A DNA stretch of 64,000 nucleotides, from NCBI GenBank assembly GCA_022791255.1, contig JAAVYR010000004.1:92094-156093 (forward strand), read 5' to 3'. The stretch's first letter is position 1. Every line of letters starts with the position of its first letter. Made by a program: the position numbers and the translations under genes. Positions 4,966-54,251 of this stretch are shown here, piece by piece. The notes under the pieces are model-generated. The model saw only the letters and a list, made by a program, of their open reading frames with translations. It did not search any database and was not told the origin of the DNA. The stretch is from Peptococcaceae bacterium (GTDB lineage: Bacteria > Bacillota > Dehalobacteriia > UBA4068 > JAAVYR01).

Positions 4966-5460
4966 ATGACTATCTATCAGCAGCAGCAATCATTAGAATT
5001 TTATATGCAGGAAGCATTATTAGAGGCAGAAAAAGCCCAGGCGCATGGAGATATCCCAGTAGGTGCCGTCATCGTGCGCCAAGGGGAAATCATTGCCCGG
5101 GGGCACAACCTACGGGAGCAGGAACAATCTGTCCTGCTCCATGCTGAAATGGTTGCCATTGCTGAAGCCTGCCAGGTTTTGGGTAGCTGGCGCCTCAAGG
5201 ACTGCGACCTCTATGTTACCTTAGAGCCCTGCCCTATGTGTGCAGGTGCCATCATCCAAGCCCAAATCAAAACAGTTATCTTTGGTGCAGATGACAGCAA
5301 ATGGGGCGCCGGCGGCAGCCTTTTCCAGCTGCTAGAGTCGCCCCTTTTAAACTATCAGGCAGAAGTTATCAGCGGCATTTGCGCCCCAGAGAGTAAAGCC
5401 TTGTTACAACAGTTTTTTCTCAACCGGCGAAATTCATCTAAGTCAGGTAATGACAGATAA
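4966..5460 (+). CDS. tadA: tRNA-specific adenosine deaminase (TadA; CMP/dCMP deaminase zinc-binding).
   Basis: HAEMVAI...PCPMCAGAI zinc-binding motifs. The ORF is open from 4888, but that would overlap the tRNA terminator; the start is placed at the in-frame ATG at 4966. Confidence 0.8.
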   Translation: MTIYQQQQSLEFYMQEALLEAEKAQAHGDIPVGAVIVRQGEIIARGHNLREQEQSVLLHAEMVAIAEACQVLGSWRLKDCDLYVTLEPCPMCAGAIIQAQIKTVIFGADDSKWGAGGSLFQLLESPLLNYQAEVISGICAPESKALLQQFFLNRRNSSKSGNDR

Positions 5461-5490
5461 AAGACCATACTGCTAGCAGTATGGTCTTTT
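5459..5490 (+). terminator. Terminator after tadA.
   Basis: AAGACCATACTGCTAGCAGTATGGTCTTTTGTTT perfect hairpin plus T-run. Confidence 0.7.
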
Positions 5491-5635
5491 GTTTACAAGA
5501 GGTAAGACTTTCTTCTTGATTACATGTCAGATGTCACATTTCCCATCACTTTGCATATGATGAAAAAAGAAAGAGGGCGCAATAGCTAATCCTTTTGTTT
5601 ACAAGCTATGGCACCTAGCGAAAGGAGAGACGGGA

Positions 5636-6814
5636 ATGACACAGGAACAACAAGACTTCACCGTAGAACAGCAACCTTCCGCTTCCTCTCCCCAAGATGA
5701 GATTGTCAAAGACGATAAAGTATACACTGCCTATCCCATGCCCAAAGAAGAAACAGAGGAAAAAGAACCCCCCACCTATGAACAAGGTCCTGGCTATTAT
5801 CAGACCAGAAGCGGCTATTACCGACAATATGAACGAACAGAACAGGCAGAACCTTGGACCAATACACAGCGCCAACAAGGAGGCCAAACCTATCAAAACC
5901 CCTCTGGTGGCCAAAGGCAACAATACACCAATCACAATACAAATTTCCAGCAAAACCAAGGACAAAACCAAAATCAGTATCAATATCAAAACCAATATCA
6001 AGGCAGACAAACCAACCAAAACAGACAATATCAAAACCAGCAACGCCAACAAAACCAGCAGTATCAGCAGTACCAATATCAACAGCAACAACAGCAATCC
6101 TATGGGCAAAATCAAAATCAACAAAACCAAAACCAGCAGCAGACGGCAAATGGTCAAGGCGCTCCATCTATGACGCAAATCGTCAATCAAATCCTACAAG
6201 CGCTGCAGCAAAACAGCAATGCAAACAGCAGCGGCGGAACTGCTGCCGCCAACAATACCAATAATACCAATAATGCTAACACTACAACAGCTGGCAACAA
6301 CAACGGCAACGGAAACACCAGCGCCAGTGCTGGATCTCTCCTGACCCAGCTGGCTCCAGTTATCAAATCTTTTATGAATAATGGCGGAGCTGCTGCCGGA
6401 CAAAACGGCAATACCATCCAGGCCATTACTAACTTCATCAACCAAAACGGCGGCATCGGCGCTGTGCTGAATATGCTAGGTGCAGCCGGCGGCGGACTGG
6501 GCAATACCTCAAGCGCCGCTAGTGCAGCCACCGGTGGCGGTTTACTGGGCAGCTTAGGCTCTTATCTGGGGAAAACGCTCCGAGGCAAACCCCTCAGAGG
6601 CAGTAATATGGGGCAGATGAACCAAATGGGGCAAATGGGTGCCATGGGACAAAGAGGCCCAAATGGTTCTGGGAATATGGGCGGCAGGGGCTACGGAGGC
6701 CCCGGTAATATGCCTGGCAGCTATGGCATGCCTACTTATGGCGGCGGGCCCCAAGGGCAAAACCTGCCGTCTTGGAATGAAGTCCAGCAAATGGTCAATA
6801 ACTGGAGAAAATAA
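5636..6814 (+). CDS. Q/N/Y/G-rich low-complexity (prion-like domain) protein of unknown function.
   Basis: 392 aa with strong RBS GAAAGGAGAGACGGGA-ATG. Long tracts of QNQ, QYQ, NNTNN, GGxG and MGQM repeats. The three other overlapping track ORFs (5615-6190 -, 5697-6173 +, 5706-6167 -) are frame artefacts of the repeats. Terminator at 6838-6872. Confidence 0.6.
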   Translation: MTQEQQDFTVEQQPSASSPQDEIVKDDKVYTAYPMPKEETEEKEPPTYEQGPGYYQTRSGYYRQYERTEQAEPWTNTQRQQGGQTYQNPSGGQRQQYTNHNTNFQQNQGQNQNQYQYQNQYQGRQTNQNRQYQNQQRQQNQQYQQYQYQQQQQQSYGQNQNQQNQNQQQTANGQGAPSMTQIVNQILQALQQNSNANSSGGTAAANNTNNTNNANTTTAGNNNGNGNTSASAGSLLTQLAPVIKSFMNNGGAAAGQNGNTIQAITNFINQNGGIGAVLNMLGAAGGGLGNTSSAASAATGGGLLGSLGSYLGKTLRGKPLRGSNMGQMNQMGQMGAMGQRGPNGSGNMGGRGYGGPGNMPGSYGMPTYGGGPQGQNLPSWNEVQQMVNNWRK

Positions 6815-6987
6815 TAAAAAACATGCTCTATAAAAATAAAAGAGAACTGTTATAGGTACAGTTCTCTTTTATTTTGAGAAACAGGTCGAAAGATGACAAA
6901 GATTTTTTCTCAGCGGGCATATTCCCTTCCCCTGGTGCATATGGTTATGTAACTGTAAATGTGAGAAAGCACACAGGAGGGATTGGT

Positions 6988-8436
6988 ATGGATAAGATTT
7001 ATTTTCCAATAGAAAAAACAGTGTTCCTACCACGGGAAAAAGCTCCCATTGGCAAAATGGAACAAGTAACGACAAAGGCAAAAATAGACGCCATCGAACC
7101 GGCACAAACAGGCTGGCTCTGCTATGGCAAGCTATTAATAGATTTAACATACACCCCCATGGGGACAGGACGGGAAAAACACCAAGAACAATGGAAACAA
7201 GTTTCCCAACAGCTGCTGGCTATGGGAAAAGATACGAAAGAAAGCTGCTCTATTATCGTGGATTTCATTCAGGAACTACCCGACAGAGACTTTACCTATG
7301 GTTGTGAATTTGATGCAGATGTACAGAAGAAGACCTGGCAGCAAATAGCCAGCAACGCCCTAGAAATCGGCGTCGACATCGCCCTCTCTGTACGAGAAAA
7401 GCAAAAAAAGGCCGTACAAGATATGGCTGAAGCCCAAGACCATTGCATGGTGTTAGAACAAGACAGCTTCTCCCTAGAGGAAAAAAAGGCAGACCCTTCC
7501 CGCACCAAAAAAGCCACAGCACAAGAACCAGAAGAACTTTACTACTATGCAGATGAAGAAGGCTGCGCCATGACGACCCTAGATAGCAATGAAGATACCC
7601 TTGTTTTCTGTCCGACTCCACCAGCAGAAGAAAAAACTGATAGTTGCCATTATCCGGTAGATTTCACCCAAAAAGAACTTTGCCCCACAGAAGAAGGTAC
7701 CGGCAGTAAAGGACAGCATCTTTTGGGGAAGCAACCGAAAGACCATTGCAAGCCAGAGGCAGAACTGGTATTAGAAGGAGACATGGCCTTCCAAGCGAAC
7801 TGCCCGGCAGAACCTGAAAAAGAAAAGAAAACAGAACCGAAGAAAACCGACCATGTAGATTGCTGTCTGGAAGAAAACGAAGAGGCTGCCCCCTGTCTTG
7901 CAGAAAGAAAAGCAGAAGTAACAGAAAAAATAATAGAAATGGAAACAGAAACCCGCATCATAACCAATACCAATGAAAACAATGCTGTCGCAGAAAAACC
8001 AACTGATACTGTAGATACGACAGATACGACGAATGAAACAGAAGAAGTTTGCATCAATGAAGAAATGGTATTAGAAACGGCCCCGCTCCCAGCAGAAGAC
8101 AACACCGATGAAGCCTGTGAAGTGGTACCACTACCCTTGCCTGGCAAAGAAAAACATCACTTCTGGAAAGGTAAAAGGGATAAAAAAGGAGATTTTTCAT
8201 TATCAGACATACCAGATATGTCAGATATGACGCCTCCCTTCTCTGCCACACCTGCTGAAAAACCAGCAGAGCCCAAAAAAGGCTACCGCTTAAAATTTTA
8301 TGTGGTGCAGGGCGGCGAAGACCTAGCTGCCATCGCCGAAAAGCATAGCGTCAGCCCAGACAGCATCCTAGCCGCCAATAAAAATATCAGCGAAGAAGAC
8401 ATCCGCACCGGCATGGTACTCTCCATCCCTATGTAA
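6988..8436 (+). CDS. spoVID: SpoVID/SipL-like sporulation protein: N-terminal domain, long acidic Glu/Asp-rich region and C-terminal LysM domain.
   Basis: RBS AGGAGGGATTGGT-ATG at 6988. C-terminal YRLKFYVVQGGEDLAAIAEKHSVSPDSILAANKNISEEDIRTGMVLSIP is a clear LysM. The acidic middle and the downstream ysxE-like CotS-family gene mirror the B. subtilis spoVID-ysxE operon. Confidence 0.5.
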   Translation: MDKIYFPIEKTVFLPREKAPIGKMEQVTTKAKIDAIEPAQTGWLCYGKLLIDLTYTPMGTGREKHQEQWKQVSQQLLAMGKDTKESCSIIVDFIQELPDRDFTYGCEFDADVQKKTWQQIASNALEIGVDIALSVREKQKKAVQDMAEAQDHCMVLEQDSFSLEEKKADPSRTKKATAQEPEELYYYADEEGCAMTTLDSNEDTLVFCPTPPAEEKTDSCHYPVDFTQKELCPTEEGTGSKGQHLLGKQPKDHCKPEAELVLEGDMAFQANCPAEPEKEKKTEPKKTDHVDCCLEENEEAAPCLAERKAEVTEKIIEMETETRIITNTNENNAVAEKPTDTVDTTDTTNETEEVCINEEMVLETAPLPAEDNTDEACEVVPLPLPGKEKHHFWKGKRDKKGDFSLSDIPDMSDMTPPFSATPAEKPAEPKKGYRLKFYVVQGGEDLAAIAEKHSVSPDSILAANKNISEEDIRTGMVLSIPM

Positions 8437-8480
8437 AAAGGTAAAAACACCGAGCATAACAGGGAAAAGGAGGGTCGGTC

Positions 8481-9467
8481 ATGGAACAACAAAACCAATT
8501 ATTAGCAGAAGCCCAGGACATTTTACGAGCCTGGACCGTCGTACCTATCTCCGTTGGCGCCAAAGGTAAAGATATCCTGGTGACAACAGAGGCAGGTACC
8601 AGACTGCTAAAATATTATCCCCAAGGTGCAAGACAAGGATTTCGTTGCCACATGGCTATGGAATACAGCATCGAGCGAGGCTTTTACAGCCTGCCACGCC
8701 ATATCTTAAATCGCAACGGCAAACCCCTTACCGTTTATGAGGAACGCTGCTATGGTCTAGCAGATATCTGGGCAGCAAAACCCATAGACTGGCAATGCAA
8801 CCAAGATATCTTCCGCTTAGGCCAGGCCATGGGCCAAGTGCACACAGCCATGGCAGGCTTCCACCAGGCATATCTGGAGCAACCAGAAAAAAATTGGCTC
8901 ACCCGTGCCATAGAAATGGCAGAAACTTGGCTGGCAGGAAAAGAAAAAATCCCCGTAAGCCTCCACCCCCAATGGGAACGGGTATGCTTATCCCTGGGCC
9001 ACCTAGTAGAAATATTAGGAGAACAAGAAGCAGTGCTTTTGGAAGTAGAAGCCGTCATGCCCTTTGTCCATAATGGCTTTACCGGCAAAGAAATCTTCCT
9101 CTTACCACAAGGAGAAGTATGGGTCGGTGGTTGGGAACAATGGCAAGGAGGAAATTCCCTAGCCGACCTCTGCGCCGTACTCCACAAAATCGCCTGGCAG
9201 CGCAACTGGGACGCCAAAGCCATGGAAGCCCTCTTTGCTGGCTATCGCTTAAAGGGTATCTTTCGTTCGGATATGGCGGCAGTGGTTTGCGCTTGGAGCG
9301 CCATGCCCTTTGCAGCACTAGACTTATTAGCCCGTTATAGCGAAGAAGACCGTCCCGGCACGGAAGAAGAATGGCAGCCTATCTTTAACCTGCAGCTGAA
9401 AAAAGAACAAGTCTATGAAGAGATTGCAGCCTGGACAAGAAATTACTGGCGAGGGGGCGATTTATAA
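8481..9467 (+). CDS. ysxE: CotS/YsxE-family spore-coat protein (aminoglycoside-phosphotransferase/kinase-like fold, degenerate catalytic motif).
   Basis: 328 aa, paralogous to the next two genes. Position immediately after the spoVID-like gene. Catalytic HxD..N region degenerate (FVHNGFTGKEI). Confidence 0.5.
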   Translation: MEQQNQLLAEAQDILRAWTVVPISVGAKGKDILVTTEAGTRLLKYYPQGARQGFRCHMAMEYSIERGFYSLPRHILNRNGKPLTVYEERCYGLADIWAAKPIDWQCNQDIFRLGQAMGQVHTAMAGFHQAYLEQPEKNWLTRAIEMAETWLAGKEKIPVSLHPQWERVCLSLGHLVEILGEQEAVLLEVEAVMPFVHNGFTGKEIFLLPQGEVWVGGWEQWQGGNSLADLCAVLHKIAWQRNWDAKAMEALFAGYRLKGIFRSDMAAVVCAWSAMPFAALDLLARYSEEDRPGTEEEWQPIFNLQLKKEQVYEEIAAWTRNYWRGGDL

Positions 9468-10693
9468 TGGAATGGGAACAATGGCAAAACCGCTCGATAC
9501 AACAAAAATACCCCTCTCTCACCCAGGTATTAGCTGCTTGGGAATTAGTCCCTACCTATGCGGCCATAGAAGGCACTCTTTGCCGCGTCAAGTGTCAGCA
9601 TGGAAAATGGTGGGTCCTCAAGCGCATAGACGGACGGGACCGAGCAGAGTTTATCGGCAATCTCCTGACCCAATTATCCCAATATCAACTAACACCGCCA
9701 GTGTTACGCACCAAATACGGGGACACCATTGCTTACTGGTTTGACGGCTATTATTATCTGATGCCCCTCATCCGCGGCAAGGAATGCTCTAATGAAAAAC
9801 TATCTGATGTCTCTTTATCGGCACAACGGCTGGCTCTGTTTCACCGCTATGCACAAGCACTAAATCTCCCTCGTTTCCAGGGAGATAACTTCCAGGAGCT
9901 AAGCAGCCGCCTGCCCCAATACCAAGAAATCTGCCACCCGGAAGTAGATAAAATAGAAAACACCCAGGTGCGGCTGGAAGCTGCTGATTTCCTCTATCAA
10001 GTTCAAAATAGATTAGCAAAATTCCCTCGCTACCAGCTGCAGGAACTAGAAGCAACAGCCATGGAAACCCAAACCATCCGCCATGGCCATTATCACTGTG
10101 GCCAAGTAATCAAAGAACACCGCAGCGCCTTTATTGTCCACTGGGAAGAAGCCGCTATCGGTGTACAGCTATTAGATTTATCAGACTTCTGTTATAAAGT
10201 CCTCTCCAAAAACAAATGGCAACCGGAATACTATCTGGCTATCTTAAATGGCTATCAAGATATCCTGCCCCTCAGCGACAGCGAGAAAGCTTTCTTAAGA
10301 GAAACGCTCCTACTGCCAATAGAACTAGAACGAGGCCTCATCGGCAGAAAACCCAAAGGCAAACGGCTGGAAAAATTATTCCGAGAGGCTATGGAAATAG
10401 ACCAACGAAAGCTAGCCTGCTTTGCAGCCCTACAAGGAGAAGCAGCCCCTAACCATCGAGACAAAAAAATGGAAAAAGCAGCAAAGGCGGAAAAAGAGAA
10501 AAAGGAAAAAGAGCGAAAGGCCAAAGAAAAGAAAAAGAAACAAGAAAAAAAAGCCAAGCAAAAAAAGAAACAGCAGCAAACACAAGCAGCAACTAGCACC
10601 AAAGGAAAACCGCAACCCCAATCCACACCCAAGCAAAACCAGCCAAAGAAAACCCCAGTCAAAGAAAACATAAAAGAAGACCCCGCGTCTTAA
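9467..10693 (+). CDS. CotS-family kinase-like spore-coat protein with ~80-aa Lys/Glu-rich C-terminal tail.
   Basis: Start overlaps previous stop (TAATG). HGHYHCGQV..LLDLSDF resembles the CotS/APH HGD..N..DFD region. Tail is KEKKEKERKAKEKKKKQEKKAKQKKKQ. Confidence 0.5.
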   Translation: MEWEQWQNRSIQQKYPSLTQVLAAWELVPTYAAIEGTLCRVKCQHGKWWVLKRIDGRDRAEFIGNLLTQLSQYQLTPPVLRTKYGDTIAYWFDGYYYLMPLIRGKECSNEKLSDVSLSAQRLALFHRYAQALNLPRFQGDNFQELSSRLPQYQEICHPEVDKIENTQVRLEAADFLYQVQNRLAKFPRYQLQELEATAMETQTIRHGHYHCGQVIKEHRSAFIVHWEEAAIGVQLLDLSDFCYKVLSKNKWQPEYYLAILNGYQDILPLSDSEKAFLRETLLLPIELERGLIGRKPKGKRLEKLFREAMEIDQRKLACFAALQGEAAPNHRDKKMEKAAKAEKEKKEKERKAKEKKKKQEKKAKQKKKQQQTQAATSTKGKPQPQSTPKQNQPKKTPVKENIKEDPAS

Positions 10694-10716
10694 AGAAGGG
10701 TAGGTGGCAAAAAACC

Positions 10717-11751
10717 ATGAGTGAGAAAACAAAAGAACAAAATCCCCCTACCCCACCAAACGCAGATATATTAACCGCCTTCGGCATAGAAAAACCCTAT
10801 GCTCTCTGGCCTATCCAAGAGAGCGTCTACAAAGTCAGCTGCATACAAGGTGACTTTTGTTTGAAATTTGTCCAGTATGACAAGGAAAAAATTGATTTCT
10901 TACACGATATTATGAACTATCTGCTAGACCAGGGGTTTTACCGCATTTCTCGGCCCATACCTACTTTATCTGGAGATAGCGCTGTAAAGACAGCAGGTGG
11001 CTTTTATACCTTAAACCGTTGGGTAGGCGGCATTGCCTGTGCATTGGATAACGATTTTCACCTGCTGGCAGCAGGTAGATGTCTAGCAGCCTTTAGCTGT
11101 GCCGCCTTAGGCGGTGAGCTGCTTCCCGGCGGCAAAGCAGGCTATCACGAGTGGCCAGAACGCTTTGCCCAGCGGACAGAAGACCTCATCACCTGGCAGC
11201 GACAAACAGCTGCTAAAAAACACCGCAATCCCTTTGAAAAGCTCTACTTAAAAGTCGCTCCGGAAATGATAGCAGACGGCATAGAAGCCCAGCGCTTACT
11301 GGCCCAGTCCGCCTATGGATATCTGGCAGACGAGGCCTTATATTATCGGGCCTTTGTCCACCGAGATGTGGCGGCAAGAAACTTTATCATCGGCCCAGAT
11401 GGAGAAGGCTGGCTCATCGATTTCGACTATTGCCGTTATGACTTGCCCCTGACCGATATTGTCCGCTTTGTAGAACGGGGCATGAAGGCAGTGGTCTACA
11501 CCCCCCAGCAATTAGATAGAATGCTGGGCGCCTATGAAACCATACGAAAGATTGACTCGGAGGAATACCGCGTCATTTCTGCCATGCTTTTATTTCCCCA
11601 GAAATTTTGGCGATTATGCAGCCGTTATTTCGCAGCCCCTGAGGACGCCTTAAAACAAGGGATTTATTATAAACTAATTAATGCCATGGGACAAATGAAA
11701 GCCCATAAAGATGTCTGGTTTTATTTCCATGGCAAATACGGCTGTCGCTAA
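10717..11751 (+). CDS. CotS-family kinase-like spore-coat protein (intact Brenner/APH motifs).
   Basis: FVHRDVAARNFIIGPDGEGWLIDFDY is the canonical H-x-D..N..D-F-D of the CotS/APH/choline-kinase fold. Confidence 0.65.
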   Translation: MSEKTKEQNPPTPPNADILTAFGIEKPYALWPIQESVYKVSCIQGDFCLKFVQYDKEKIDFLHDIMNYLLDQGFYRISRPIPTLSGDSAVKTAGGFYTLNRWVGGIACALDNDFHLLAAGRCLAAFSCAALGGELLPGGKAGYHEWPERFAQRTEDLITWQRQTAAKKHRNPFEKLYLKVAPEMIADGIEAQRLLAQSAYGYLADEALYYRAFVHRDVAARNFIIGPDGEGWLIDFDYCRYDLPLTDIVRFVERGMKAVVYTPQQLDRMLGAYETIRKIDSEEYRVISAMLLFPQKFWRLCSRYFAAPEDALKQGIYYKLINAMGQMKAHKDVWFYFHGKYGCR

Positions 11752-11793
11752 AGCCAGCCTCAACCAGCAACCAAAAAACAGAGGAGGAACAAT

Positions 11794-12918
11794 ATGTTAG
11801 TAGGGATAGACGGTAGAGGCGCCGTGTGGTACAGAGGGACCGGCATTGGCACCTATACCTATCAATTATTAAAACATTTGAAGGAACGGGAAGAAGGCCA
11901 AACTTACCGTATTTTTTGGCCGGGAGAAGAATATCTCTCCTTAAATATTTCCGACCAAGAAGACTTCCGTCAAGTAGAAGCAAAAGAAAATTACTGGGAA
12001 GAGGTGTTTCTGCCCAAAGCCATCCAGCGGGAAGCCATCGACATCTATCATGTACCCCAAAACGGCATCGGGCTGCCCCGGGAAAAAAAATGCCTTCAGG
12101 TCGTTACCATCCATGACCTAATCCCTTATGTCTACCCGGAAACAGTAGGCCGCAAATACCTGCAAAATTTCCTAGAAGAAATGCCCCGTATCATGGAGTC
12201 TAGCGACCATATTATTACGGTATCAGAGTGTTCTAAACGGGACATCCAATACATCTTTGACTACCCAGCTGAGAAAATCTCCGTCATTCCTGAGGCACCA
12301 GAACCCATGTACCGTATGCTTTCTTTAGACGCTGCAAAAGATTTTTTACGGCAAAAATACGGCATCAGCGGTAACTTCATTCTTTATCTGGGCGGCTTCG
12401 GCCCACGGAAAAATGTACGGGGTCTGATCGTCGCTTTTGCCCTAGCCTTAAAGGAAATGAAAGAACCCTGCCGGCTAGTGCTGCCTGGCCGCTGGCAAAA
12501 AGAGTCTGACCCGCTAGAGCATATGCTCCATGCCTTAAACATTGCAGATAAAGTTATCTTACCGGGGTATGTAGCAGTAGACCATTTGCCCTATTTCTAC
12601 CGAGCTGCTCAGCTATTTGTTTATCCTTCCTTTTATGAAGGGTTCGGCCTACCGCCCCTAGAGGCCATGGCCTGCGGCACACCAGTCATCGCCTCCAATA
12701 CCTCCTCCATTCCAGAAGTGGTAGGAGATGGCGCATGTCTTGTTAATCCTTTTGATACCGTATCAATGGCAGAACATATCTACCGCCTCTTAAATGATGA
12801 GGAAGCTCGCTTAGAATTAGCAGAAAAAGGCCGCAAACAAGTAAAGAAATATTCTTGGGCAAAAACAGCCGCATATACCGCTCGCGTCTATGAGAAAATG
12901 TTGAAAGCGAAAAAATAA
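11794..12918 (+). CDS. GT4-family glycosyltransferase, CotSA-like (spore-coat glycosylation candidate).
   Basis: [38 protein letters not shown] is the GT4 (EX7E) C-terminal signature. Good RBS. Located at the end of the cotS-like run. Bidirectional terminator at 12939-12968. Confidence 0.75.
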
Positions 12919-15961: not shown

Positions 15962-16732
15962 ATGAATATCATAAAAAACACCGAAGAAGAAACAAACACC
16001 ACCGCCTTCTGGCACATGGACGACATTATCCCGGATATAGACTATCTTTATTTACAGCGGCTTCATGTCCGCCTGGGAGAAATGGTCTGGCATTTATATC
16101 ACAAACTACCCACGCTCTTGCGTCCAGCCGCTATCGGCACTTTCATTACCGAAGAGATTGCCAATGTCTATCAGGCCCTTGACCGCGCACATATATTTGC
16201 GCATTACCATGGCAGCAACAGTCAACGGCATGTAGAGGATATCTACTTTACCTGGCTCAAACAGCGAACCCTTACAAAGCTTTTTTTCCCTGCCATTGCT
16301 TACATCCTGCAGACACCGGCTACCGCTTTTTTCCCCTTAGAACCAGATATCTTCCTAAGCAAAGATTTTACTTTGCCGCAAAACCTACTTATTCATGTTC
16401 TAGACGGCACCCCGCTGCGGCTGGAAATCATCTATGATACAGAAAAAAGTTATCAAATACCGGAAGAACGCCTGGTAGCCGCAAAAAACTATTTAAAGAA
16501 AACCAGCTACAACACTCTTTTCTTATATCTGGATTTATTAGCAAATCAGGGCGCGCTACTGCCCCTGGAACAATTGACCTCAAGAGAAACAAAAGTCATT
16601 TCGCTGCAGACGGGACAGCAAAAGGCTACCGCTCTCTGTCAGGAAGATTTCATCTGGAACCTAGGAGAAATGCCCCCTATCTACCCAGAAGAAACCATGC
16701 AACTCCCCAAACTACAGCAAAAACAAGGATAG
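15962..16732 (+). CDS. Hypothetical protein.
   Basis: 256-aa ORF with RBS (AAAGAGGATGACAGC-ATG). No recognisable motif. Confidence 0.4.
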   Translation: MNIIKNTEEETNTTAFWHMDDIIPDIDYLYLQRLHVRLGEMVWHLYHKLPTLLRPAAIGTFITEEIANVYQALDRAHIFAHYHGSNSQRHVEDIYFTWLKQRTLTKLFFPAIAYILQTPATAFFPLEPDIFLSKDFTLPQNLLIHVLDGTPLRLEIIYDTEKSYQIPEERLVAAKNYLKKTSYNTLFLYLDLLANQGALLPLEQLTSRETKVISLQTGQQKATALCQEDFIWNLGEMPPIYPEETMQLPKLQQKQG

Positions 16733-39242: not shown

Positions 39243-40415
39243 CTACTTTACTATGCCACCGTCTATAATGATGGTCTTACCATAATGAGAAAAAATATTC
39301 ATCTTTGTATCTGTAATCAAAGTCTGAGTTTTCTCCCCTACCAATTTTAATAGCTGTTGGCACCGCTTCTCATCTAATTCTGAGGCTACATCATCTAAAA
39401 GCAGCACTGGATATTGACCGCTCTTCTGATGAAACAAATCAATCTCTGCTAGCTTCAAAGCAAGGGCCGCTGTCCTCTGCTGCCCTTGAGAACCAAATTG
39501 ACGAGCAGAAATACCATTAATGGTAATGGCAATATCATCTCTATGGGGTCCTACACCTGTAGTGCCTTTATACAAATCTTCCCGCCGATTTCTTTCTAAT
39601 GCCAGTTTTAACTGCTCTTTTAAAAAATCCTGCTGGGTACTGGAAGAAGTATGGTCTTTTTTCATCCTAGCTAAGGTTTGCCAAACTTCATCGTTTTGTT
39701 CCTTTTGACGGAAAAGAGCTGCTTCATAAGAAAGATGGATATATTCTTTACCATCGCTCAACAACCGATGAATTTTTTCAGCAAAGGGAAGGATATCTTC
39801 TAGTAGCTGTTGTCTTTTCAGTAAAATAGCACTACCATGACGGCTAAGTTCCTCGTCCCACACGGCAAGCATCTCGGGATCTGTCTCACCATAGGATTGC
39901 TTTAAATATTTATTTCGTTGTTCCACACTTTGCCGGTAAGCACTGTAAACAGGATAAAACTCCCCATCAAGCTGCAGTAGTTCCCTATTTAAAAACTTCC
40001 GACGAATAGCAGGACCGTCCTTTACCAGTGATAAGTCCTCTGGAGAAAAAATAACTGTCTGAAAATGTCCCAGCACTTGGCTGGTCTTTTTCAGGGCTTT
40101 GCCATTGATTTTCCATAATTTTCTTTTTTCCCTAGTATATCCCACAGACATCTCCAGGGGCGTCTCCTCACCAGAAAAAGGGTCTCTGCCCCTGACCCCG
40201 GCACATAAAAAAAAGTAGGGTTCCTGCCAGCGAATTAAATCTACATCGCTGCTATCCCGGTAAGAGCTAGCCAACGAAAAATAACAGCAAGCCTCTATGA
40301 GATTAGACTTTCCTTGTCCGTTTAACCCCGTAATTAGGTTAATATTTGGGTGCCATTGGATGAATTGCTCCTGATAATTACGAAAATTCCGCAGTAATAA
40401 AGACTCAATACGCAC
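39243..40415 (-). CDS. recF: DNA replication and repair protein RecF.
   Basis: GLNGQGKSNLIEA Walker A, LLLDDVASELD Walker B, conserved dnaA-dnaN-recF order. Confidence 0.9.
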   Translation of the reverse strand: MRIESLLLRNFRNYQEQFIQWHPNINLITGLNGQGKSNLIEACCYFSLASSYRDSSDVDLIRWQEPYFFLCAGVRGRDPFSGEETPLEMSVGYTREKRKLWKINGKALKKTSQVLGHFQTVIFSPEDLSLVKDGPAIRRKFLNRELLQLDGEFYPVYSAYRQSVEQRNKYLKQSYGETDPEMLAVWDEELSRHGSAILLKRQQLLEDILPFAEKIHRLLSDGKEYIHLSYEAALFRQKEQNDEVWQTLARMKKDHTSSSTQQDFLKEQLKLALERNRREDLYKGTTGVGPHRDDIAITINGISARQFGSQGQQRTAALALKLAEIDLFHQKSGQYPVLLLDDVASELDEKRCQQLLKLVGEKTQTLITDTKMNIFSHYGKTIIIDGGIVK

Positions 40416-40476
40416 CCTTTTTCACCTACTCTTTCTTAGACGCTTTCTCTTTTAAAAAAGTTTCTTTTTATTTTTA

Positions 40477-40692
40477 TTATTCTGTTACAACTTCATATTG
40501 GATATCTTCTACTGTTACTTGATCACCAACAAATATTTTTTTGCCAGGGGAAGTTTCCATACTGCCATTTACCAGAACCATACCATCTCTAATCATTTCT
40601 TTTGCCATGCTGCCATTTTCAGCGATACCGCACCACTTCAACAACTGCTGCAGCTGAATATATTCTGTATGAATAAATACTTTTTCCATCAT
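40477..40692 (-). CDS. yaaA: S4-domain RNA-binding protein (YaaA/RlbA-like).
   Basis: 71 aa, IQLQQLLKWCGIAENGSMAKEMIRDGMVLVNG. Position between dnaN and recF. Confidence 0.7.
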   Translation of the reverse strand: MMEKVFIHTEYIQLQQLLKWCGIAENGSMAKEMIRDGMVLVNGSMETSPGKKIFVGDQVTVEDIQYEVVTE

Positions 40693-40835
40693 GATGCCTC
40701 TTTTATCTCATAAATTTATGTTCTAATTATCTTTATCATATGTTATCTATTATATCAAATATCTATCTTAAAAAAAACTACCTCTTATCCCATTGCTTTG
40801 CATAAGAGGTAGCTTATTTTACTTTTATTTAATTC

Positions 40836-41936
40836 TTATCCAATCCTTACAGGCAGGATTAAATAAAGAAAGTTTTCATCAGCGTCGCTGGTAATAATCC
40901 CCGGTGTTACAGGCCCGGTCAGCTCCATATAAAGAGAGTCGCCTTCTATATTTTTTAATACTTCTAAAATATACTTGCTATTATAAACGACTTCTATCTC
41001 TTCCCCTTGATGAAGGATAGACATATGACCATCAATGGTACCTAAATCCGGTGCGCTAGCATGGAAACCCAATAAATCTTGACCAAAATGAAGCTTAATC
41101 ACACCTGCCCCTTCTCTTGCTACCACAGAAGCCCGTTCCATTTCTTGTAAGAAACGGCTGCTTTGAATGACGCTTTTCGTAATAAAAGCCTCTTTTTTCG
41201 GAATTACTTGATTATAATCAGGATATTGTCCATTAATCACCCGGGAAATAAAGGCAACTTGTCCTGTCCGGAAATAAATCTGATTTTTAGAAATAATCAA
41301 ATCAATCTGTTGATCCTCCGCTGCAAAGCGAGCAATCTCTTGCATAGTCTTAGCAGGAACGATAACCTTGCCCACACCTTTTCCCTGCCAAGGAATGACT
41401 TGTTTTGCCAAACGGTGGGTATCTGTAGCCACCATGACCAACTGACCTTCTATAAAATCTAACAACACCCCAGTAAAAACAGGTCTTGCTTCATTGGTAG
41501 AAGCAGCAAAAGCAACTTGTCTTACAATTTTCTTAAAAAGAGGTGCCGGAATAGAGCCTTCAATATCCCCCTGTACTTCTGGAAAGGCTGGAAAATCCAC
41601 TGGGTCCATACCACGGAACACAGTCTCAGAATTTTCATAGCTGACTGTCAAATCAAATTCTCCTGTTTGAGCTAAAACAATAGTACCTTGGGGTAAAAAA
41701 CGCACTAAATCTAAAAAGTTTTTACCTGGAACCACTACTTTCCCAGAAGCTTCTACTTCTGCAGGAATACAACACTCGATAGCTAACTCTAAATTTGTAG
41801 ATTGTAAGAAAAGACGGTCATCCTCTGCCCACAATAAAATACCAGATAACACTGGCAAAGTATTTTTACCAGAAACAGCACGGCTTACTGTCTGTACGCC
41901 ATAAAGCAAATCTTCCATCTGACAAGAAACTTTCAT
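40836..41936 (-). CDS. dnaN: DNA polymerase III beta sliding clamp.
   Basis: 366 aa, three-domain beta-clamp pattern, immediately downstream of dnaA/oriC. Confidence 0.9.
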   Translation of the reverse strand: MKVSCQMEDLLYGVQTVSRAVSGKNTLPVLSGILLWAEDDRLFLQSTNLELAIECCIPAEVEASGKVVVPGKNFLDLVRFLPQGTIVLAQTGEFDLTVSYENSETVFRGMDPVDFPAFPEVQGDIEGSIPAPLFKKIVRQVAFAASTNEARPVFTGVLLDFIEGQLVMVATDTHRLAKQVIPWQGKGVGKVIVPAKTMQEIARFAAEDQQIDLIISKNQIYFRTGQVAFISRVINGQYPDYNQVIPKKEAFITKSVIQSSRFLQEMERASVVAREGAGVIKLHFGQDLLGFHASAPDLGTIDGHMSILHQGEEIEVVYNSKYILEVLKNIEGDSLYMELTGPVTPGIITSDADENFLYLILPVRIG

Positions 41937-42488
41937 ATTCTTAAAATCCTTTCTCTCTGATCCTCAAAACAACCCAAATATCTCTATATTCTATTTTACC
42001 TATTTTTAACAAGAAATAAAATACTTTTCTATTTTTTCTGTTTATTGTTTTTTTTCATAGGTTTTTTCTAACATATAATCATCCTCTTAATCACAATGTT
42101 ATCCACATTATCCACAATCTTTGTGTATAACTAAAAGCCCTTATAAACCAAGAATTTTTTTTGTTCTCATGAAAATGATTTTCAGAAAAAAACTGTCATA
42201 ACATGGTCTTTTAATTAGTTATCCACAGTATCTTTGTGAATAATCCAAGTGGATAGTGGAATATTTTGATAAGTAGGCGACCTAATAAAAAAACTGTGAA
42301 CAAATGTGGATAAATTGGTGATGATTTTAAGATTATCCACTGACAAAAAAATGTATAAATGACCTGCAACACACTATAATAAAGGGGTTATCCACAAAAA
42401 ATTGCTACCCTTATTATTAATACTATTTAAAATAATAATAAATATAATAATATGCACAATCATAACAAAATAGAAGAAAACAGAAAAA
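41937..42488. other. oriC segment between dnaA and dnaN: DnaA-box cluster plus AT-rich DNA-unwinding element.
   Basis: TTATCCACA or 1-mismatch boxes at ~42098, 42108, 42228, 42305 (TGTGGATAA), 42342 and 42388. 60-bp AT tract (AATAATAATAAATATAATAATATGCACAATCATAAC) at 42405-42480. Confidence 0.75.
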
Positions 42489-43892
42489 TTATTTGTTAAT
42501 TAAATCAATAAGTTCATTAATAGCTCTGTTTAAATTTTCGTCGGTTACTTTTTCTGCAGAGATTTTTTCATAAGCATGCAGCACAGTTGTGTGGTCTCTG
42601 CCGCCAAACTCTTGTCCTACTTTTTGCAAAGGTTCTTCTAAAATATCCCGACAAAGATACATAGCAATCTGACGAGGATAAGCGATGGCCCTATCCCGAC
42701 GTTTATTTTTAAAATCTTCTACTTTTAAATGATAATAGTCTGCCACTACTTCTTGAATGGTATCAATGGTAACGGGCTTTTTGGGTTCATCAGGTAAAAG
42801 GCCTTTTAAAGCTTCACCAGCAATGGCTGGTGTAATCGTATTCAAACAATTAATATGTGCATAATAAATCACTTTGTTTAAAGCGCCTTCTAATTCTCGA
42901 ATATTAGAGTGAATGCGGGAAGCAATGAAAAATAACACTTCATCGGAGACAATAATATTTTCCCGTTGGGCTTTATATTGTAAAATAGCAATTCTCGTTT
43001 CTACATCCGGTGGCTGGATATCGGTAATCAGACCCATTTCAAAACGGGAACGCAGCCGTTCTTCTAAGGTAGGAATATCCTTGGGTGGACGGTCGCTGCT
43101 TAAAATAATCTGTTTGCCAGACTCAAAAAGGCTGTTAAAAGTATGGAAAAATTCTTCCTGGGTACTTTCTTTTCCAGAAATAAATTGGATATCGTCGACT
43201 AAAAGCGCGTCAGCATTCCGATATCTATTTTTAAAACTATGGGCTTTACCTAAACGAACAGAGGCAATAAATTCATTGGTGAAAGTTTCGGTAGAAACAA
43301 ACACTACATTAAAACCTGGATTATGTTGAATAAGATAGTAGGCTATGGCTTGCATCAGGTGAGTTTTACCAAGGCCGGAGCCACCATAAATAAAAAGAGG
43401 ATTATATGCTCTGGCTGGGCGCTCTGCTACTGCGTGGGCTGCAGCATGGGCAAAACGGTTTGAGTTGCCTACTACGAAAGTATCAAAGGTATATCTAGGA
43501 TTTAATTTATAATTATTGCCAGCAGAGATAAAGGAGTCAGTTTGTATTTCCTCTTCCTCTTCTTTTGGTTGGGCAAAATGATTGCTAAAAGAATTGCTTT
43601 CTCCACCTGTAAAATCAGTAGGAGAAGGCGTTTCTTCCCATTGATTTTCATTTTGATGAAAGGATATAAATAAGGGGTCTAGTTCTTCTCCTGATACAGT
43701 ACAAAGGGCATTCTTTACAATATGAGACATATTTTCTTCCATCCAGTCGCGGGCTACTTCTGTAGGCATGGCAATAATAAATTGATTTTTTTGCCGTGTG
43801 ACAGATAGAATAGAACGAAACCACCGTTCGTAACGGTCTTCTGGTATTTGTTGTCTAATAATGGTTTGGGCCTTTTGCCAAATATTGCTCAT
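42489..43892 (-). CDS. dnaA: Chromosomal replication initiator DnaA.
   Basis: 467 aa with AAA+ Walker A (GGSGLGKTHL), sensor motifs and C-terminal DNA-binding domain. Confidence 0.95.
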   Translation of the reverse strand: MSNIWQKAQTIIRQQIPEDRYERWFRSILSVTRQKNQFIIAMPTEVARDWMEENMSHIVKNALCTVSGEELDPLFISFHQNENQWEETPSPTDFTGGESNSFSNHFAQPKEEEEEIQTDSFISAGNNYKLNPRYTFDTFVVGNSNRFAHAAAHAVAERPARAYNPLFIYGGSGLGKTHLMQAIAYYLIQHNPGFNVVFVSTETFTNEFIASVRLGKAHSFKNRYRNADALLVDDIQFISGKESTQEEFFHTFNSLFESGKQIILSSDRPPKDIPTLEERLRSRFEMGLITDIQPPDVETRIAILQYKAQRENIIVSDEVLFFIASRIHSNIRELEGALNKVIYYAHINCLNTITPAIAGEALKGLLPDEPKKPVTIDTIQEVVADYYHLKVEDFKNKRRDRAIAYPRQIAMYLCRDILEEPLQKVGQEFGGRDHTTVLHAYEKISAEKVTDENLNRAINELIDLINK

Positions 43893-44200
43893 AGGTAGGA
43901 CGCCTCTTTCTAATTGTTGAACTGACTATTTTTTTATAGTTTTTGAAATAATTGCTGAAATGTAGGATGTAATGCTTATTTATGACGATATAGATACATG
44001 AAAAAAAATTTTGTTATAACTAAAGAAATTTGTTAAAAAAAGAAAAATGGGATTTTTTGGATAATTTGGATAATGTGTATAAGTTGTGTATAAAATAAAA
44101 AATTGCCCACTAAAAGTAAGAAAAGTACCTTGTAGATAATAAAATTTATTGGAAATAAAATTTATCCACAATTTGTGGATAAATTTTTAAATTTATAAAT
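43893..44200. other. Upstream oriC DnaA-box cluster (dnaA promoter region).
   Basis: Inverted perfect pair TTATCCACAattTGTGGATAA at 44162-44182 plus TGGATAAT repeats at 44058-44075. Confidence 0.7.
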
Positions 44201-44491
44201 GCAGTTTCATAATAACAGAGAGACTTGTCAAATTCAAGTAGATATTTTTTCCTACTATTACGATTATAATAGGGATAATCCAAAGATAATGGAACAATAA
44301 AAGGAAAAAAGTCTATAAAAGATATCTTACATATTTTCCAGGGAATGGCTTGACATTTCTACTTAAAAAAGATATACTTTTTTCGTTATACTGGGAGTAG
44401 ACCAGGGGGTTGTCTACAGCTTGCCGGCAGATGGATAGCTGTAAGGGCCCTTGTGGTAACAAATAAGAAAAAAGAGAGGAGAGATTGAAAA

Positions 44492-44626
44492 GTGAAACGC
44501 ACTTATCAACCAAAAAGAAGAGTTCATAAAAGAGTTCATGGCTTCTTGTCCAGAATGAGCAGCAAATCCGGTAGAAACGTATTAAAAAGAAGAAGAGCTA
44601 AAGGCAGAAAAGTTCTTTCTGCTTAG
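44492..44626 (+). CDS. rpmH: 50S ribosomal protein L34.
   Basis: GTG start with [56 protein letters not shown]. Below the track size cutoff. Confidence 0.9.
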
Positions 44627-44755
44627 CCAGATGACGAAGGCCGCCTTCCGCGGTCTTTCTTTCTATTTATTATAAATTTATATTTTAAAGCCAATAGAAA
44701 GAAACATCTATAAAAAGTAATCATAAAAAAGTAATGATATGATAAGGTTCTATTT

Positions 44756-45112
44756 ATGTTAAAAAAAACATACCGTTTAACCAGAAGAAATGACTTTCGC
44801 CGCGTCTATGGCCGGGGAAAGTCAGTGGCGAATTACAGTATGGTATTGTATGTGGCTCCCAGCAGAAACCAATCTATGCGAATTGGTTTTTCTGTTTCTA
44901 AGAAAATAGGCAAAGCGGTTGTTCGCAATCGAGTAAAAAGATTGATGAGAGAGGCTTCTTTTCATTTGCTTCCCTCCTTTTCTCCTTATAAAGATTATGT
45001 CTTTATTGCGCGCAATGGCATCAAAGAACAAAGCTTGTTAGAAATAGAAAAACAAATGGCGTCTTTGTTAAAGAAAATCAAAGAAAACAAGAAAATAGAA
45101 CAAAGTAGATAA
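44756..45112 (+). CDS. rnpA: Ribonuclease P protein component.
   Basis: KTYRLTRRNDFRRVY..GKAVVRNRVKRLMRE. Conserved rpmH-rnpA order. Confidence 0.85.
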   Translation: MLKKTYRLTRRNDFRRVYGRGKSVANYSMVLYVAPSRNQSMRIGFSVSKKIGKAVVRNRVKRLMREASFHLLPSFSPYKDYVFIARNGIKEQSLLEIEKQMASLLKKIKENKKIEQSR

Positions 45113-45146
45113 AGTAGATAAAATGGGTATGTTTTTTTAAGAGGGT

Positions 45147-45365
45147 TTGATATTTGTGAAAAAATTGTGTATGGGTTTGATTTTGTTTTATCAAAAAGCC
45201 ATTTCGCCTTTATTGCCTGCACGGTGCAGATTTTATCCTACTTGTTCTCAATATGCTTTAGAAGCAGTGGAAAAATATGGGGTATGGAAGGGCGGTTGGA
45301 TGAGTGTGAAGCGCATTTGCCGTTGTCATCCATGGTCGCGCGGCGGCTATGACCCTGTAAAATAA
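45147..45365 (+). CDS. yidD: Membrane protein insertion efficiency factor YidD.
   Basis: [32 protein letters not shown] signature. Confidence 0.85.
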
Positions 45366-45397
45366 GTGAGGTGAACCGCATTTTTTGCGGAAAATAA

Positions 45398-46255
45398 TTG
45401 AGTAGTTTCATCAATCTAATTCAACAATTTGTTGAATATTTATTTGGTTTGACCCAATCTTTTGGGTTTCCCAGCTATGCGCTGGCTATTATTTTGCTTA
45501 CCATCATTGTAAAGGTATTATTATATCCTCTGATGCGGAAGCAAATGCAGTCTATGGCTACTTTGAATAAGTTACAGCCAAAGATTGCTGCTATTGACAG
45601 AAAATATGGTAAAAATCCCGCTAAGAAAAATGAAGCTTTAGTAAAGCTTTATCAACAAAACAATATTAATCCTATGGCAGGATGCTTGCCTTTACTTATT
45701 CAATTGCCTATTTTTGTTTGTTTATATCGCGCATTATTAAACTTTGAATACACTGGCGGGTTTGATAGCTTCTATTGGATTGAACATATAGGAAACCCAG
45801 ACCCTACAGGGATATATCTGCCTGTTTTAGTAGGGCTTAGCACCTATGCACAGCAGAAAATCATGATAACTAATAAAAATGACCGTATGCAAAACACGAT
45901 GCTCTATGTAATGCCAATTATGTTGGGTTTTATGGCAATTCGTTTTCCAGCTGGTCTTTGTCTCTACTGGATTACCTACAGCATTATCGGTACCTTGCAG
46001 CAGTTGGCAGTTAATCATGGCAGCTTATTTGGTGCTGTAAAGCATTATATGGATAAGAATAACGGGAATGCAGAAGCAGAAAAGGAAGACGCTGAAACTG
46101 ACAAAACTAATAAAGCAGATAAGACCAATAAGACTGGCAATCAAAAGAAAACTGAGAAAAAACAAGGCAAACAAAATAAGTCTGTTGAGAAACAGGAAGA
46201 GCCTGCTCAACAGCCAGAAGAGCTGGAACATCCTGACCAGCAGGATGAAGCGTAA
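45398..46255 (+). CDS. yidC: YidC/Oxa1-family membrane protein insertase (short Gram-positive form with K-rich tail).
   Basis: Conserved TM core (PLMRKQMQSM..LQP; NPMAGCLP..IQLPIF). C-terminal lysine-rich ribosome-binding tail. Confidence 0.85.
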   Translation: MSSFINLIQQFVEYLFGLTQSFGFPSYALAIILLTIIVKVLLYPLMRKQMQSMATLNKLQPKIAAIDRKYGKNPAKKNEALVKLYQQNNINPMAGCLPLLIQLPIFVCLYRALLNFEYTGGFDSFYWIEHIGNPDPTGIYLPVLVGLSTYAQQKIMITNKNDRMQNTMLYVMPIMLGFMAIRFPAGLCLYWITYSIIGTLQQLAVNHGSLFGAVKHYMDKNNGNAEAEKEDAETDKTNKADKTNKTGNQKKTEKKQGKQNKSVEKQEEPAQQPEELEHPDQQDEA

Positions 46256-46282
46256 GACATTGGTAAAGAAAGAGGGAAAAAG

Positions 46283-47017
46283 ATGTCTATTACAATAGAA
46301 AAAACAGCGAAAACTGTAGATGAAGCCATTGATAAAGCATTAAGCGAATTAAATGTTTCTATGGATGAAGCTGATGTAGAAATATTAGAAACTGGTAGCA
46401 AAGGTATTTTTGGCTTAGGTGGAAAGGACGCAAAGGTGCGGGTAACTGTAAAAGGGAAAGAAGAACCATTATCCTTTGCTGTTGCTGACCAACGAAAAGA
46501 GACTGAAAGTGTACCAGCTCCTGTTAAAAAGGCTGCTGTTCCTACAGATGATGGCGAAGTTGAAAAAATCGCTTTAAACTTCTTACAAGGTATTTTTGAT
46601 TATTTGAAGGTAACACCTGATATCGCTATAGAACGAAAGGAAGAGTCCTTGTGGTTGACAATGACAGGTGCTAACCTAGGCGTTATCATCGGTAGACGGG
46701 GAGAAACACTAGACTCTTTGCAATATCTGACTAATTTGGTGGTAAACCGTAAGGTGGCAGAAAAACAAAGAATTATCCTAGATGTAGAAGGATACCGCAA
46801 AACGAGAGAAGAAACGCTGCGGGATTTAGCGGAAAAAATGGCGGGTAAAGCTTTGAAAATGAATGGGCCATTGCGCCTAGAACCGATGAACCCCCATGAA
46901 CGGAGAATTATTCATATGACGCTGCAGGGAGACGAACGAGTAGAAACCTACAGCGAAGGGGAAGAACCTTTCCGTCGGGTCGTTATCAAGAAAAAGCGTC
47001 ATTTCCAAGATAAATAA
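46283..47017 (+). CDS. jag: Jag/KhpB (EloR) RNA-binding protein: Jag_N, KH and R3H domains.
   Basis: Jag_N at the start, KH GxxG (IIGRRGETLDSLQYL), C-terminal R3H. Terminator at 47024-47065. Confidence 0.85.
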   Translation: MSITIEKTAKTVDEAIDKALSELNVSMDEADVEILETGSKGIFGLGGKDAKVRVTVKGKEEPLSFAVADQRKETESVPAPVKKAAVPTDDGEVEKIALNFLQGIFDYLKVTPDIAIERKEESLWLTMTGANLGVIIGRRGETLDSLQYLTNLVVNRKVAEKQRIILDVEGYRKTREETLRDLAEKMAGKALKMNGPLRLEPMNPHERRIIHMTLQGDERVETYSEGEEPFRRVVIKKKRHFQDK

Positions 47018-48174: not shown

Positions 48175-48486
48175 AGCAATTCCTTCCTTTTTCAGTAATA
48201 TGGTTAGCAATATATTTCTGTAGAATTATTATAGCACTGTTCTCAAAAAATATACAATAAATACCATTATTTTTCTAGGATTTAAAATTTTTTTATTTTT
48301 TTATAAATTTTACTTGCAATTTTTGTTGACATGGTGTATTTTTATAATGAGGCGTTACCCAGCGATAAGACAACTTAATTTGGGGCACACCCCACACAGG
48401 TTTTTTAGTTTATTTGCGTTTATCTACATCTGTTCAGTTTTAGCTTTGCTTTGATTGATAAACAATTTTTTTAGGGGGTGCTTCAT

Positions 48487-54055: not shown

Positions 54056-54157
54056 GTTTTCACCATCCGCTATTCATTGCTTTTGTTATCATTATCATTA
54101 CGATGATTTTCACGATTATATTTATTATATACGATACTGCACGGAGAAACAAGAGAA

Positions 54158-54186
54158 GGGTAATGTTTCACATGAAACATTACCCT
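54158..54186. promoter_or_regulatory. parS-like site inside an extended palindrome GGGTAATGTTTCACATGAAACATTACCC.
   Basis: Located between parA and rsmG. Same 16-mer as at 52308. Confidence 0.5.
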
Positions 54187-54251
54187 ATATTTTATGCAGA
54201 AGTACGATTTTTCGTGTTTTTTCCCTAAGAGAATGACAGAAAAGTGTGATT

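Follow-up and report, generated by a model that had tools for sequence, protein, structure and literature searches.

An orphan glutamine/asparagine-rich protein of uncultured gut Clostridia as a candidate matrix protein of the spore coat or an outer layer

Among the coat proteins of Bacillus subtilis, the analogues of the protein described here are GerQ, a transglutaminase substrate with a glutamine (Q)-rich N-terminus, the sigma-K-dependent and Q/P/Y/M-rich YppG, the Q/Y-rich YqfQ/VrrA with its 12-bp coding repeats, CotG, and the Tyr-rich CotC/CotU. Little is known of clostridial spore coats, whose components are mostly lineage-specific. YppG appears on a list of coat proteins (PMC7725329), YqfQ was detected in spore extracts (PMC13553755) and transglutaminase cross-linking has been described in spore coats (PMC6490927). 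We analysed 64,000 nucleotides of a Peptococcaceae bacterium (assembly GCA_022791255.1, contig JAAVYR010000004.1, positions 92,094 to 156,093; hereafter the window) that encode an orphan protein rich in glutamine, asparagine (N), tyrosine and glycine, which we call the Q/N protein. Our favoured, still tentative interpretation (rough probability 45%) is that of a lineage-specific matrix protein of the spore coat or an outer layer, expressed late in the mother cell.

The coding sequence lies at 5636-6814 (+), starts with ATG, includes its stop codon and encodes 392 amino acids, exactly as a first, sequence-only reading of this DNA had stated. That reading had also described an acidic N-terminus followed by Q/N/Y, N/T/G and G/M/Q/P-rich parts, and our measurements agree: the whole protein holds 18.6% Q, 14.5% G, 13.3% N and 5.6% Y, and no Cys. 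For a Q/N-rich (prion-like) domain, the DIANA/Michelitsch-Weissman cut-off is at least 30 Q+N per 80 consecutive residues (PMC8409284). The richest 80 residues of the Q/N protein (from residue 95) contain 56, and the corresponding counts in four full-length orthologues are 47-53, all above 30, so that by composition the 392-aa protein has such a domain. Neither a signal peptide nor a transmembrane segment was found in it. In its DNA, the low-complexity region shows short and imperfect repeats only, of 6-12 bp.

Intact orthologues with identities of 50-75% were found in four further lineages. These are P0001 from the Logan assemblies L001/L002 (75%), P0002 from the Logan assembly L003 (50%), and full-length orthologues in two GTDB metagenome-assembled genomes, L004 ('uncultured Clostridia bacterium') and L005 ('uncultured Peptococcaceae bacterium', part of iMGMC, a catalogue of the mouse gut). 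Two more contigs, L013 and L016, carry a 90%-identical copy, which is partial in L013, where the contig is cut. Start codon, ribosome-binding site (RBS) and frame are kept across the orthologues. Ratios of nonsynonymous to synonymous substitution rates (dN/dS, Nei-Gojobori) were 0.10-0.21 over the whole gene and, within residues 234-321, 0.03-0.13 (about 0.03 for the closer orthologues), with synonymous sites saturated. The gene is thus real and under purifying selection. An open reading frame (ORF) absent or frameshifted in relatives, which the sequence-only reading had named as grounds to drop the gene, is not what this comparison returned.

Long ORFs are common in low-complexity DNA, and an antisense ORF of 191 codons with a Leu/Ile/Val-rich translation (5615-6190, -) lies within the Q/N tract; it arises as an artefact from reverse-complemented CAA/CAG/AAC codons and could be taken for a membrane protein in error. 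That the 392-aa frame is likewise a chance opening in CAA/AAC-rich DNA is effectively refuted, since species with saturated synonymous sites keep its frame, its start codon, its RBS, its promoter and its terminator, and dN/dS is low; we regard the chance of this as practically nil. The RBS itself, AAAGGAG (5621-5627, +), lies 8 nt 5' of the ATG and is conserved in all orthologues, and GAAAGGAG is invariant in five of five loci.

The protein is modular. Residues 1-74 (5636-5857, +) form an acidic, Pro/Tyr-rich N-terminus with the motifs KVYTAYP and EPPTYEQGPGYYQTRSGYYRQYE (43-82% identity to orthologues); its net charge is -9, and across orthologues the charge stays between -7 and -9 with seven to eight Tyr in each. 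Residues 75-176 (5858-6163, +) make up the Q/N/Y/G low-complexity (prion-like) tract, with 45% Q, 18% N and 10% Y and few charged or hydrophobic residues. Its identity is 16-49%; among the five sequences it measures 88-135 aa, with 49-63% Q+N, 5-10 Tyr and no Lys in four of five (one in L003). Its composition is kept while the sequence drifts, and L003 moves from Q to N. An amphipathic helix follows (PSMTQIVNQILQALQQN, residues 177-193, 6164-6214, +; predicted helix span 179-193, hydrophobic moment 0.53), with an identity of 82-100% and a dN/dS of about 0.03-0.05. Residues 194-233 (6215-6334, +) are an N/T/A/G/S linker of 23-40 aa, free of charged and aromatic residues and 12-35% identical. 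The conserved core, residues 234-321 (6335-6598, +), comprises four short amphipathic helices with Gly-rich linkers between them (SLLTQLAPVIKSFMN, NTIQAITNFINQ, IGAVLNMLGA and LLGSLGSYLGKTLR) and has a net charge of +5; it is 91-94% identical to L001, L004 and L005 and 64% to L003. Residues 322-376 (6599-6763, +) are a G/M/N/Q/P/Y tract (MGQMNQMGQMGAMGQ...; G 36%, M 15%, N 11%, Q 11%, P 9%) of conserved composition and 45-73% identity, and the C-terminal helix LPSWNEVQQMVNNWRK (residues 377-392, 6764-6811, +) contains two invariant Trp (identity 81-100%).

The description of everything behind the N-terminus as almost entirely low-complexity therefore holds for the tracts, where composition is kept and sequence is not, but not for residues 177-193, 234-283, 303-321 and 377-392, which are amphipathic, helical and the most conserved parts. 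Altogether six short amphipathic helices and the Tyr-rich N-terminal motif are strongly conserved, and low complexity is absent from about a third of the protein. AlphaFold2, run on a six-sequence alignment, placed helices at the conserved blocks only (mean predicted local distance difference test score, pLDDT, 42; predicted template modelling score 0.18). The C-terminal helix is the sole segment with a pLDDT of about 80, and the Q/N/Y/G tract is modelled as disordered (pLDDT 30-58). The protein is accordingly predicted to be largely disordered, with a modular layout. The conserved helical modules speak for specific docking between proteins and against a function that is purely compositional.

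Pfam searches returned no family for the full protein at E <= 0.01 and none at E <= 10 for the N-terminal 75 aa, the C-terminal 218 aa or the orthologue P0002; the coat families GerQ (Spore_GerQ), YppG-like and YqfQ-like were not matched. NCBIfam had no family for it, the best PDB sequence reached E = 0.69, which is no relative, and no relatives were found in the JGI metagenomes. Word-indexed homology searches of a database of 5.8 billion sequences retrieved its own family only. An exhaustive search of 1.84 billion representatives with a HMMER profile gave that family and P0006 and no true outside relative. The P0006 hit (1006 aa, E = 5.7e-9) we judged spurious: it is a four-fold repeat protein that matches only ..NFVNQ..GIQDIFNMEG... 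The family, seen only in genomes of the Clostridia/Peptococcaceae type with sporulation genes, is an orphan restricted to a small group of uncultured, putatively spore-forming gut Clostridia and known from a handful of metagenomic samples.

A mother-cell factor without a structural role, such as a scaffold, chaperone or condensate that acts transiently, uses the conserved helices to organise or bring in coat, crust or glycosylation factors and is not kept in the mature spore, would be another use for such a protein. A core so much more identical (91-94%) than the rest of the protein fits binding of a specific client or partner, and the promoter evidence presented below applies to it equally. 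Met/Gln/Asn-rich amphipathic helices with Gly linkers presumably also bear a loose resemblance to client-binding helical-hand domains. The Pfam, NCBIfam and PDB searches, however, showed no homology to chaperone or adaptor families, and the present data do not separate such a factor from a structural protein. We consider it unlikely.

The gene is preceded by a conserved promoter, GTCACATTT-N12-GCATATGAT (5533-5561, +), of the sigma-K (late mother-cell) type, and we infer its recognition by sigma-K. AC at 5536-5537 is separated by a 16-nt spacer from CATA at 5554-5557, which begins the element CATATGAT (5554-5561); this is the sigma-K pattern of AC at -35 and CATA at -10 with a spacing of 16-17 nt. 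In an alignment of 200 nt upstream of the gene from five loci, invariant columns occur in four places only: G.CAC.TTT, GCATA.GAT at a distance of 12 nt downstream, purine-rich sequence immediately 3' of the latter, and the RBS. The spacer and the flanks cannot be aligned, and the leader of L005 is shorter by about 30 nt. The motif is kept in L003 too, where protein identity is 50% and the gene stands in a different context (jag/yidC/rnpA).

Sigma-E and sigma-K have a common -10 element and differ at -35, reading ATA in the case of sigma-E and AC in that of sigma-K (PMC3789822). Three Clostridioides difficile sigma-K promoters with mapped transcription start sites, CD1133 (TCACATTT...; ACTCACATTTCTTG...GAATATAC), CD1898 (GAAACA-N15-GCATATATT) and CD2409, have the same look and spacing as that of the Q/N gene. 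Like the sigma-K promoters of Clostridia and Bacilli, the latter combines AC at -35, followed by T-rich sequence, with GCATAT at -10 across a 16-nt spacer; unlike them, it is assigned from sequence alone, with sigma-E as a less likely alternative. The sigK gene of the host falls beyond the window. As an internal control for promoter typing we used the promoter of the spoVID-like operon downstream, GCATATT-N14-CATATGGT (6917-6945, +; ATA-N16-CATA). It is of sigma-E type, as is that of spoVID in B. subtilis, is invariant in six loci and reads GCATATT-N14-CATA(T/A)GGT across them.

A consensus scan also reads the Q/N promoter as sigma-70-like, GTCACA-17-TATGAT, with 9 of 12 positions. From this housekeeping promoter (GTCACA-N17-TATGAT), the Q/N protein might be made independently of sporulation, as a disordered cytoplasmic protectant against stress or desiccation or as a scaffold of RNA/protein granules. 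Its Q/N/Y and G/M/R tracts do resemble eukaryotic phase-separating domains, linkage to coat genes is absent in most relatives, and the conserved 3' neighbours, genes for a PAP2 phosphatase and a CAP-domain protein, are not recognised sporulation genes. In L003, however, the sigma-70 hexamers fall to about 6 of 12 (GGCACC / TAGGAT), while AC and GCATA are unchanged. The invariant GCA ahead of TATGAT plays no part in the -10 element of sigma-A and is the core of the sigma-E/K -10 element, as in the mapped C. difficile promoters. The conservation pattern is hence the one expected for sigma-K or sigma-E, not for sigma-A. Together with the restriction of the family to genomes with sporulation genes, this makes a vegetative role rather unlikely in our view. 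The sequence-only reading had thought a role in a spore-coat or crust matrix plausible, and a role in the coat or an outer layer is now better supported because the sigma-K-type motif is conserved in five divergent loci.

Two intrinsic terminators frame the transcription unit. The first ends the upstream tadA-like deaminase gene (5455-5494, +; an 18-bp hairpin of -23.6 kcal/mol, z = -6.7, followed by TTTTGTTT) and insulates the Q/N gene from transcription upstream. The second is the gene's own (6833-6875, +; -22.9 kcal/mol, z = -7.3, with a U tract), which had been noted before and is conserved in L013. Flanked by both, the Q/N gene is therefore monocistronic. A stem-loop in the 5' leader (5580-5612) showed no significant folding (z -0.3 to -0.7).

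We then compared nonsynonymous rates (dN) of genes in the neighbourhood against the same relatives, with dS at 0.7-2.7 and saturated throughout. The dN of the Q/N protein was 0.18-0.27, next to 0.18-0.19 for the SpoVID-like protein (near-identical L013 left out), 0.09-0.10 for CotS, 0.08-0.14 for the CAP-domain protein, 0.05 for TrkH, 0.02-0.06 for PAP2, 0.01-0.03 for the GT4 glycosyltransferase and 0.004-0.006 for PEPCK; housekeeping neighbours, at 0.004-0.09, are below the Q/N protein. Its helical core has a dN of about 0.035, as in an ordinary conserved protein, and the low-complexity tracts drive the overall rate. By this measure, the rate matches that of a coat morphogenetic-type protein.

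In the process that we propose, the sigma-K-type promoter would drive the Q/N gene in the mother cell during late sporulation, and the protein, made in the cytoplasm, would end up in the spore coat or an outer layer. Helices 177-193, 234-321 and 377-392, with the Tyr-rich acidic N-terminus, may dock to coat partners, to the protein itself, or both. The fast-evolving Q/N/Y, N/T/G and G/M/Q/P tracts would make up a sticky, hydrophilic matrix, which Gln-Lys (transglutaminase) or di-tyrosine cross-links, or self-association driven by Q/N, might fix in place. Sigma-K use, coat localisation and this mechanism of docking and matrix formation are what we infer from the observations above.

The Q/N protein shares with the low-complexity coat proteins of B. 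subtilis the lack of a signal peptide and a Gln/Tyr/Gly/Met-rich disorder, as well as imperfect coding repeats of 6-12 bp, fast evolution and a mother-cell-type promoter. In the window lineage only, it also adjoins spoVID/cotS-type genes. It differs from the B. subtilis proteins in having no detectable homology to them, in its larger size (392 aa) and in its distinctive, conserved multi-helix C-terminal module. It probably joins the low-complexity, lineage-specific proteins of the spore-coat type, a group that overlaps with the Q/N-rich proteins of bacteria.

Several points weigh against a coat or outer-layer role. The -10 element ends in TG instead of the TA of the B. subtilis consensus CATAnnnTA, and the minimal pattern AC-N16-CATAnnnT shows no enrichment in the window (11 observed versus 6.7 expected), so that the promoter argument is carried wholly by conservation across species (five sequences). 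Because the family is known from metagenomes alone, sporulation of the hosts is deduced from gene content. In L015 (289-1741), an ENA contig, the orthologue lacks the first ~75 codons and the promoter and has an unrelated antisense membrane-protein gene in their place, which is either a truncation or a chimeric assembly. Finally, adjacency to the coat-type operon, claimed by the sequence-only reading as a position directly upstream of a spoVID/cotS cluster, is true of the window, L013 and L016 (~90% identical) but not of the other lineages. Guilt by association is weak because this adjacency is lineage-specific and the operon recurs in unrelated contexts.

In its Q/N composition, with Tyr and Gly interspersed and few charged or hydrophobic residues, the protein also resembles yeast Sup35 and Ure2, Clostridium botulinum Rho and other bacterial candidates. 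It might thus be a true bacterial prion or functional amyloid, whose Q/N/Y tract adopts a self-propagating, heritable or structural state. The 56 Q/N in 80 residues against a threshold of 30 would fit, as would Q/N richness that is kept while the sequence drifts, including the shift from Q to N in L003, and Tyr is interspersed in yeast Sup35N as in the Q/N/Y tract. Bacterial precedents can be counted for it as well: 2200 prion-like candidates have been reported in 839 proteomes (PMC4606120), and C. botulinum Rho is a documented prion-like domain (PMC4703818). The sequence-only reading had called such composition rare in bacteria; it is uncommon, yet documented, and for this reason composition alone cannot carry a finding. 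Composition alone is also a poor predictor. In contrast to the prion domains of Sup35, Ure2 and Rho, the tract is joined to an orphan helical module and not to a known functional domain such as Rho or a translation factor, and the best-conserved parts are the helices, not the tract. Moreover, expression is likely in a terminally differentiating mother cell, which leaves no lineage to inherit a prion state. We regard a prion as very improbable.

A more daring version of a spore-surface role has the Q/N/Y tract phase-separate or gel in an amyloid-like manner in the mother cell, with the conserved helices nucleating this on the forespore. The endospores of gut Peptococcaceae-like Clostridia would then carry a condensate or amyloid coat layer, possibly cross-linked to Lys-rich tails such as that of the protein encoded at 9467-10693. 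This we hold to be quite unlikely.

As a coat or outer-layer candidate, the Q/N protein would offer something concrete for an uncultured gut clade, and a test case for prion-like composition used as building material rather than for switching states. If it is vegetative instead, it would be a candidate, rare among bacteria, for a cytoplasmic condensate driven by Q/N. Its value is that of a lead; current understanding is not overturned.

The coat-type operon directly 3' of the Q/N gene spans 6988-12918 (+) and has five genes. They encode a SpoVID-like protein with a C-terminal LysM domain (6988-8436, +; 6988 is the true start), two YsxE/CotS-like kinase-fold proteins (8481-9467 and 9467-10693, +), which at 48 and 69 bits fall below the TIGR02906 cut-off, a CotS-family protein (10717-11751, +) and, last, a GT4 glycosyltransferase (11794-12918, +). 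Of the two names previously given to the cluster, cotS stood, as the CotS-family protein scores 199.9 bits against the TIGR02906 cut-off of 172.7 and belongs to that family. The name spoVID did not: against TIGR02907 (SpoVID), the gene at 6988-8436 reached 18.9 bits (cut-off 169.85), and its C-terminal LysM region alone matches. What it shares with SpoVID is architecture: it ends in LysM, is acidic in the middle, has YsxE-like genes downstream and carries the sigma-E-type promoter. We therefore call it SpoVID-like rather than SpoVID.

Synteny differs between the lineages. A PAP2 gene lies directly 3' of the Q/N gene in L001/L002, L004, L005 and L015 (which ends inside it) and is followed by a Cu_amine_oxidN1/CAP gene in L001/L002, L004 and L005; in the window, both are found beyond the operon. 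In L003, the Q/N gene adjoins jag/yidC/rnpA. The five-gene module in turn follows sbcCD-like genes in L006, precedes GT2 and MatE genes in L007-L009, and is also present in L010 and L014. Its spans are 6917-12918 in the window, 8193-14094 in L006, 1021-6910 in L007, 253-6355 in L010 and 423-5184 in L014. Gene order within it is identical in all loci, the flanking genes vary per lineage, and its sigma-E-type promoter and leader are invariant (GCATATTC-N12-TGCATAnGGTTATGTAACTGTAAATG...AGGAGGGATTGGTATG). Judged by synteny, the spoVID-like/two kinase-fold/cotS/GT4 operon is a mobile five-gene module. An ancestral linkage of Q/N gene and coat operon was rejected on this comparison.

In L004 (3686-9276), about 5.7 kb are inserted between tadA and the Q/N gene relative to the window. 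This insert encodes a HAD hydrolase, a Germane-domain (GerM-like) protein, a Cu_amine_oxidN1-GH18 protein, a helix-turn-helix regulator and a 168-aa ORF without assignment. The regions flanking the Q/N gene look like a hot spot of rearrangement. Just upstream of the orthologue in L003 are two tiny Cys/Gly/Asn-rich ORFs (1068-1360 and 1531-1740), each with a hydrophobic segment and without a match in NCBIfam. The first is preceded by CACAC-N15-CATACTATA (AC-N17), which has a sigma-K-like look. The Q/N gene thus tends to adjoin sporulation-type cargo: the operon in the window, L013 and L016, the Germane and GH18 genes in L004, and the tiny ORFs in L003.

Within the operon, the kinase-fold protein encoded at 9467-10693 has a Lys/Glu/Gln-rich C-terminal tail of about 75 aa (10480-10693; KAEKEKKEKERKAKEKKKKQEKKAKQKKKQQQ...). 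That this Lys-rich tail and the neighbouring Gln-rich protein could be transglutaminase partners is pure speculation. The GT4 glycosyltransferase is 96-99% identical to its relatives despite saturated dS (dN 0.01-0.03), and the SpoVID-like protein of the same operon is only 50-73% identical (near-identical L013 left out). By these figures, the constraint on the GT4 protein at the end of the coat operon is unusually strong.

The window covers a replication-origin region, with dnaA, dnaN and recF at 39-44 kb, rnpA/yidC/jag at 44.7-47 kb and parAB and rsmG at 52-55 kb. The genes recF, dnaN and dnaA are on the minus strand and rpmH, rnpA, yidC and jag on the plus strand (39243-47017); parB, parA and rsmG span 52402-54971. 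The Q/N gene is about 37 kb from dnaA. It and the coat operon lie on the plus strand to the left of dnaA and are therefore probably oriented head-on to the replication fork. By analogy with L003, we considered a paralogue beside jag in the window; the ORF there (47056-48210, -) is not low-complexity, bears no resemblance to the Q/N protein and looks like an aminopeptidase. A further ORF, 15962-16732 (256 aa), matches nothing in Pfam or NCBIfam and is syntenic in L001 and L004 at only 57% identity. Coat-type genes aside, it encodes the fastest-evolving protein of the neighbourhood.

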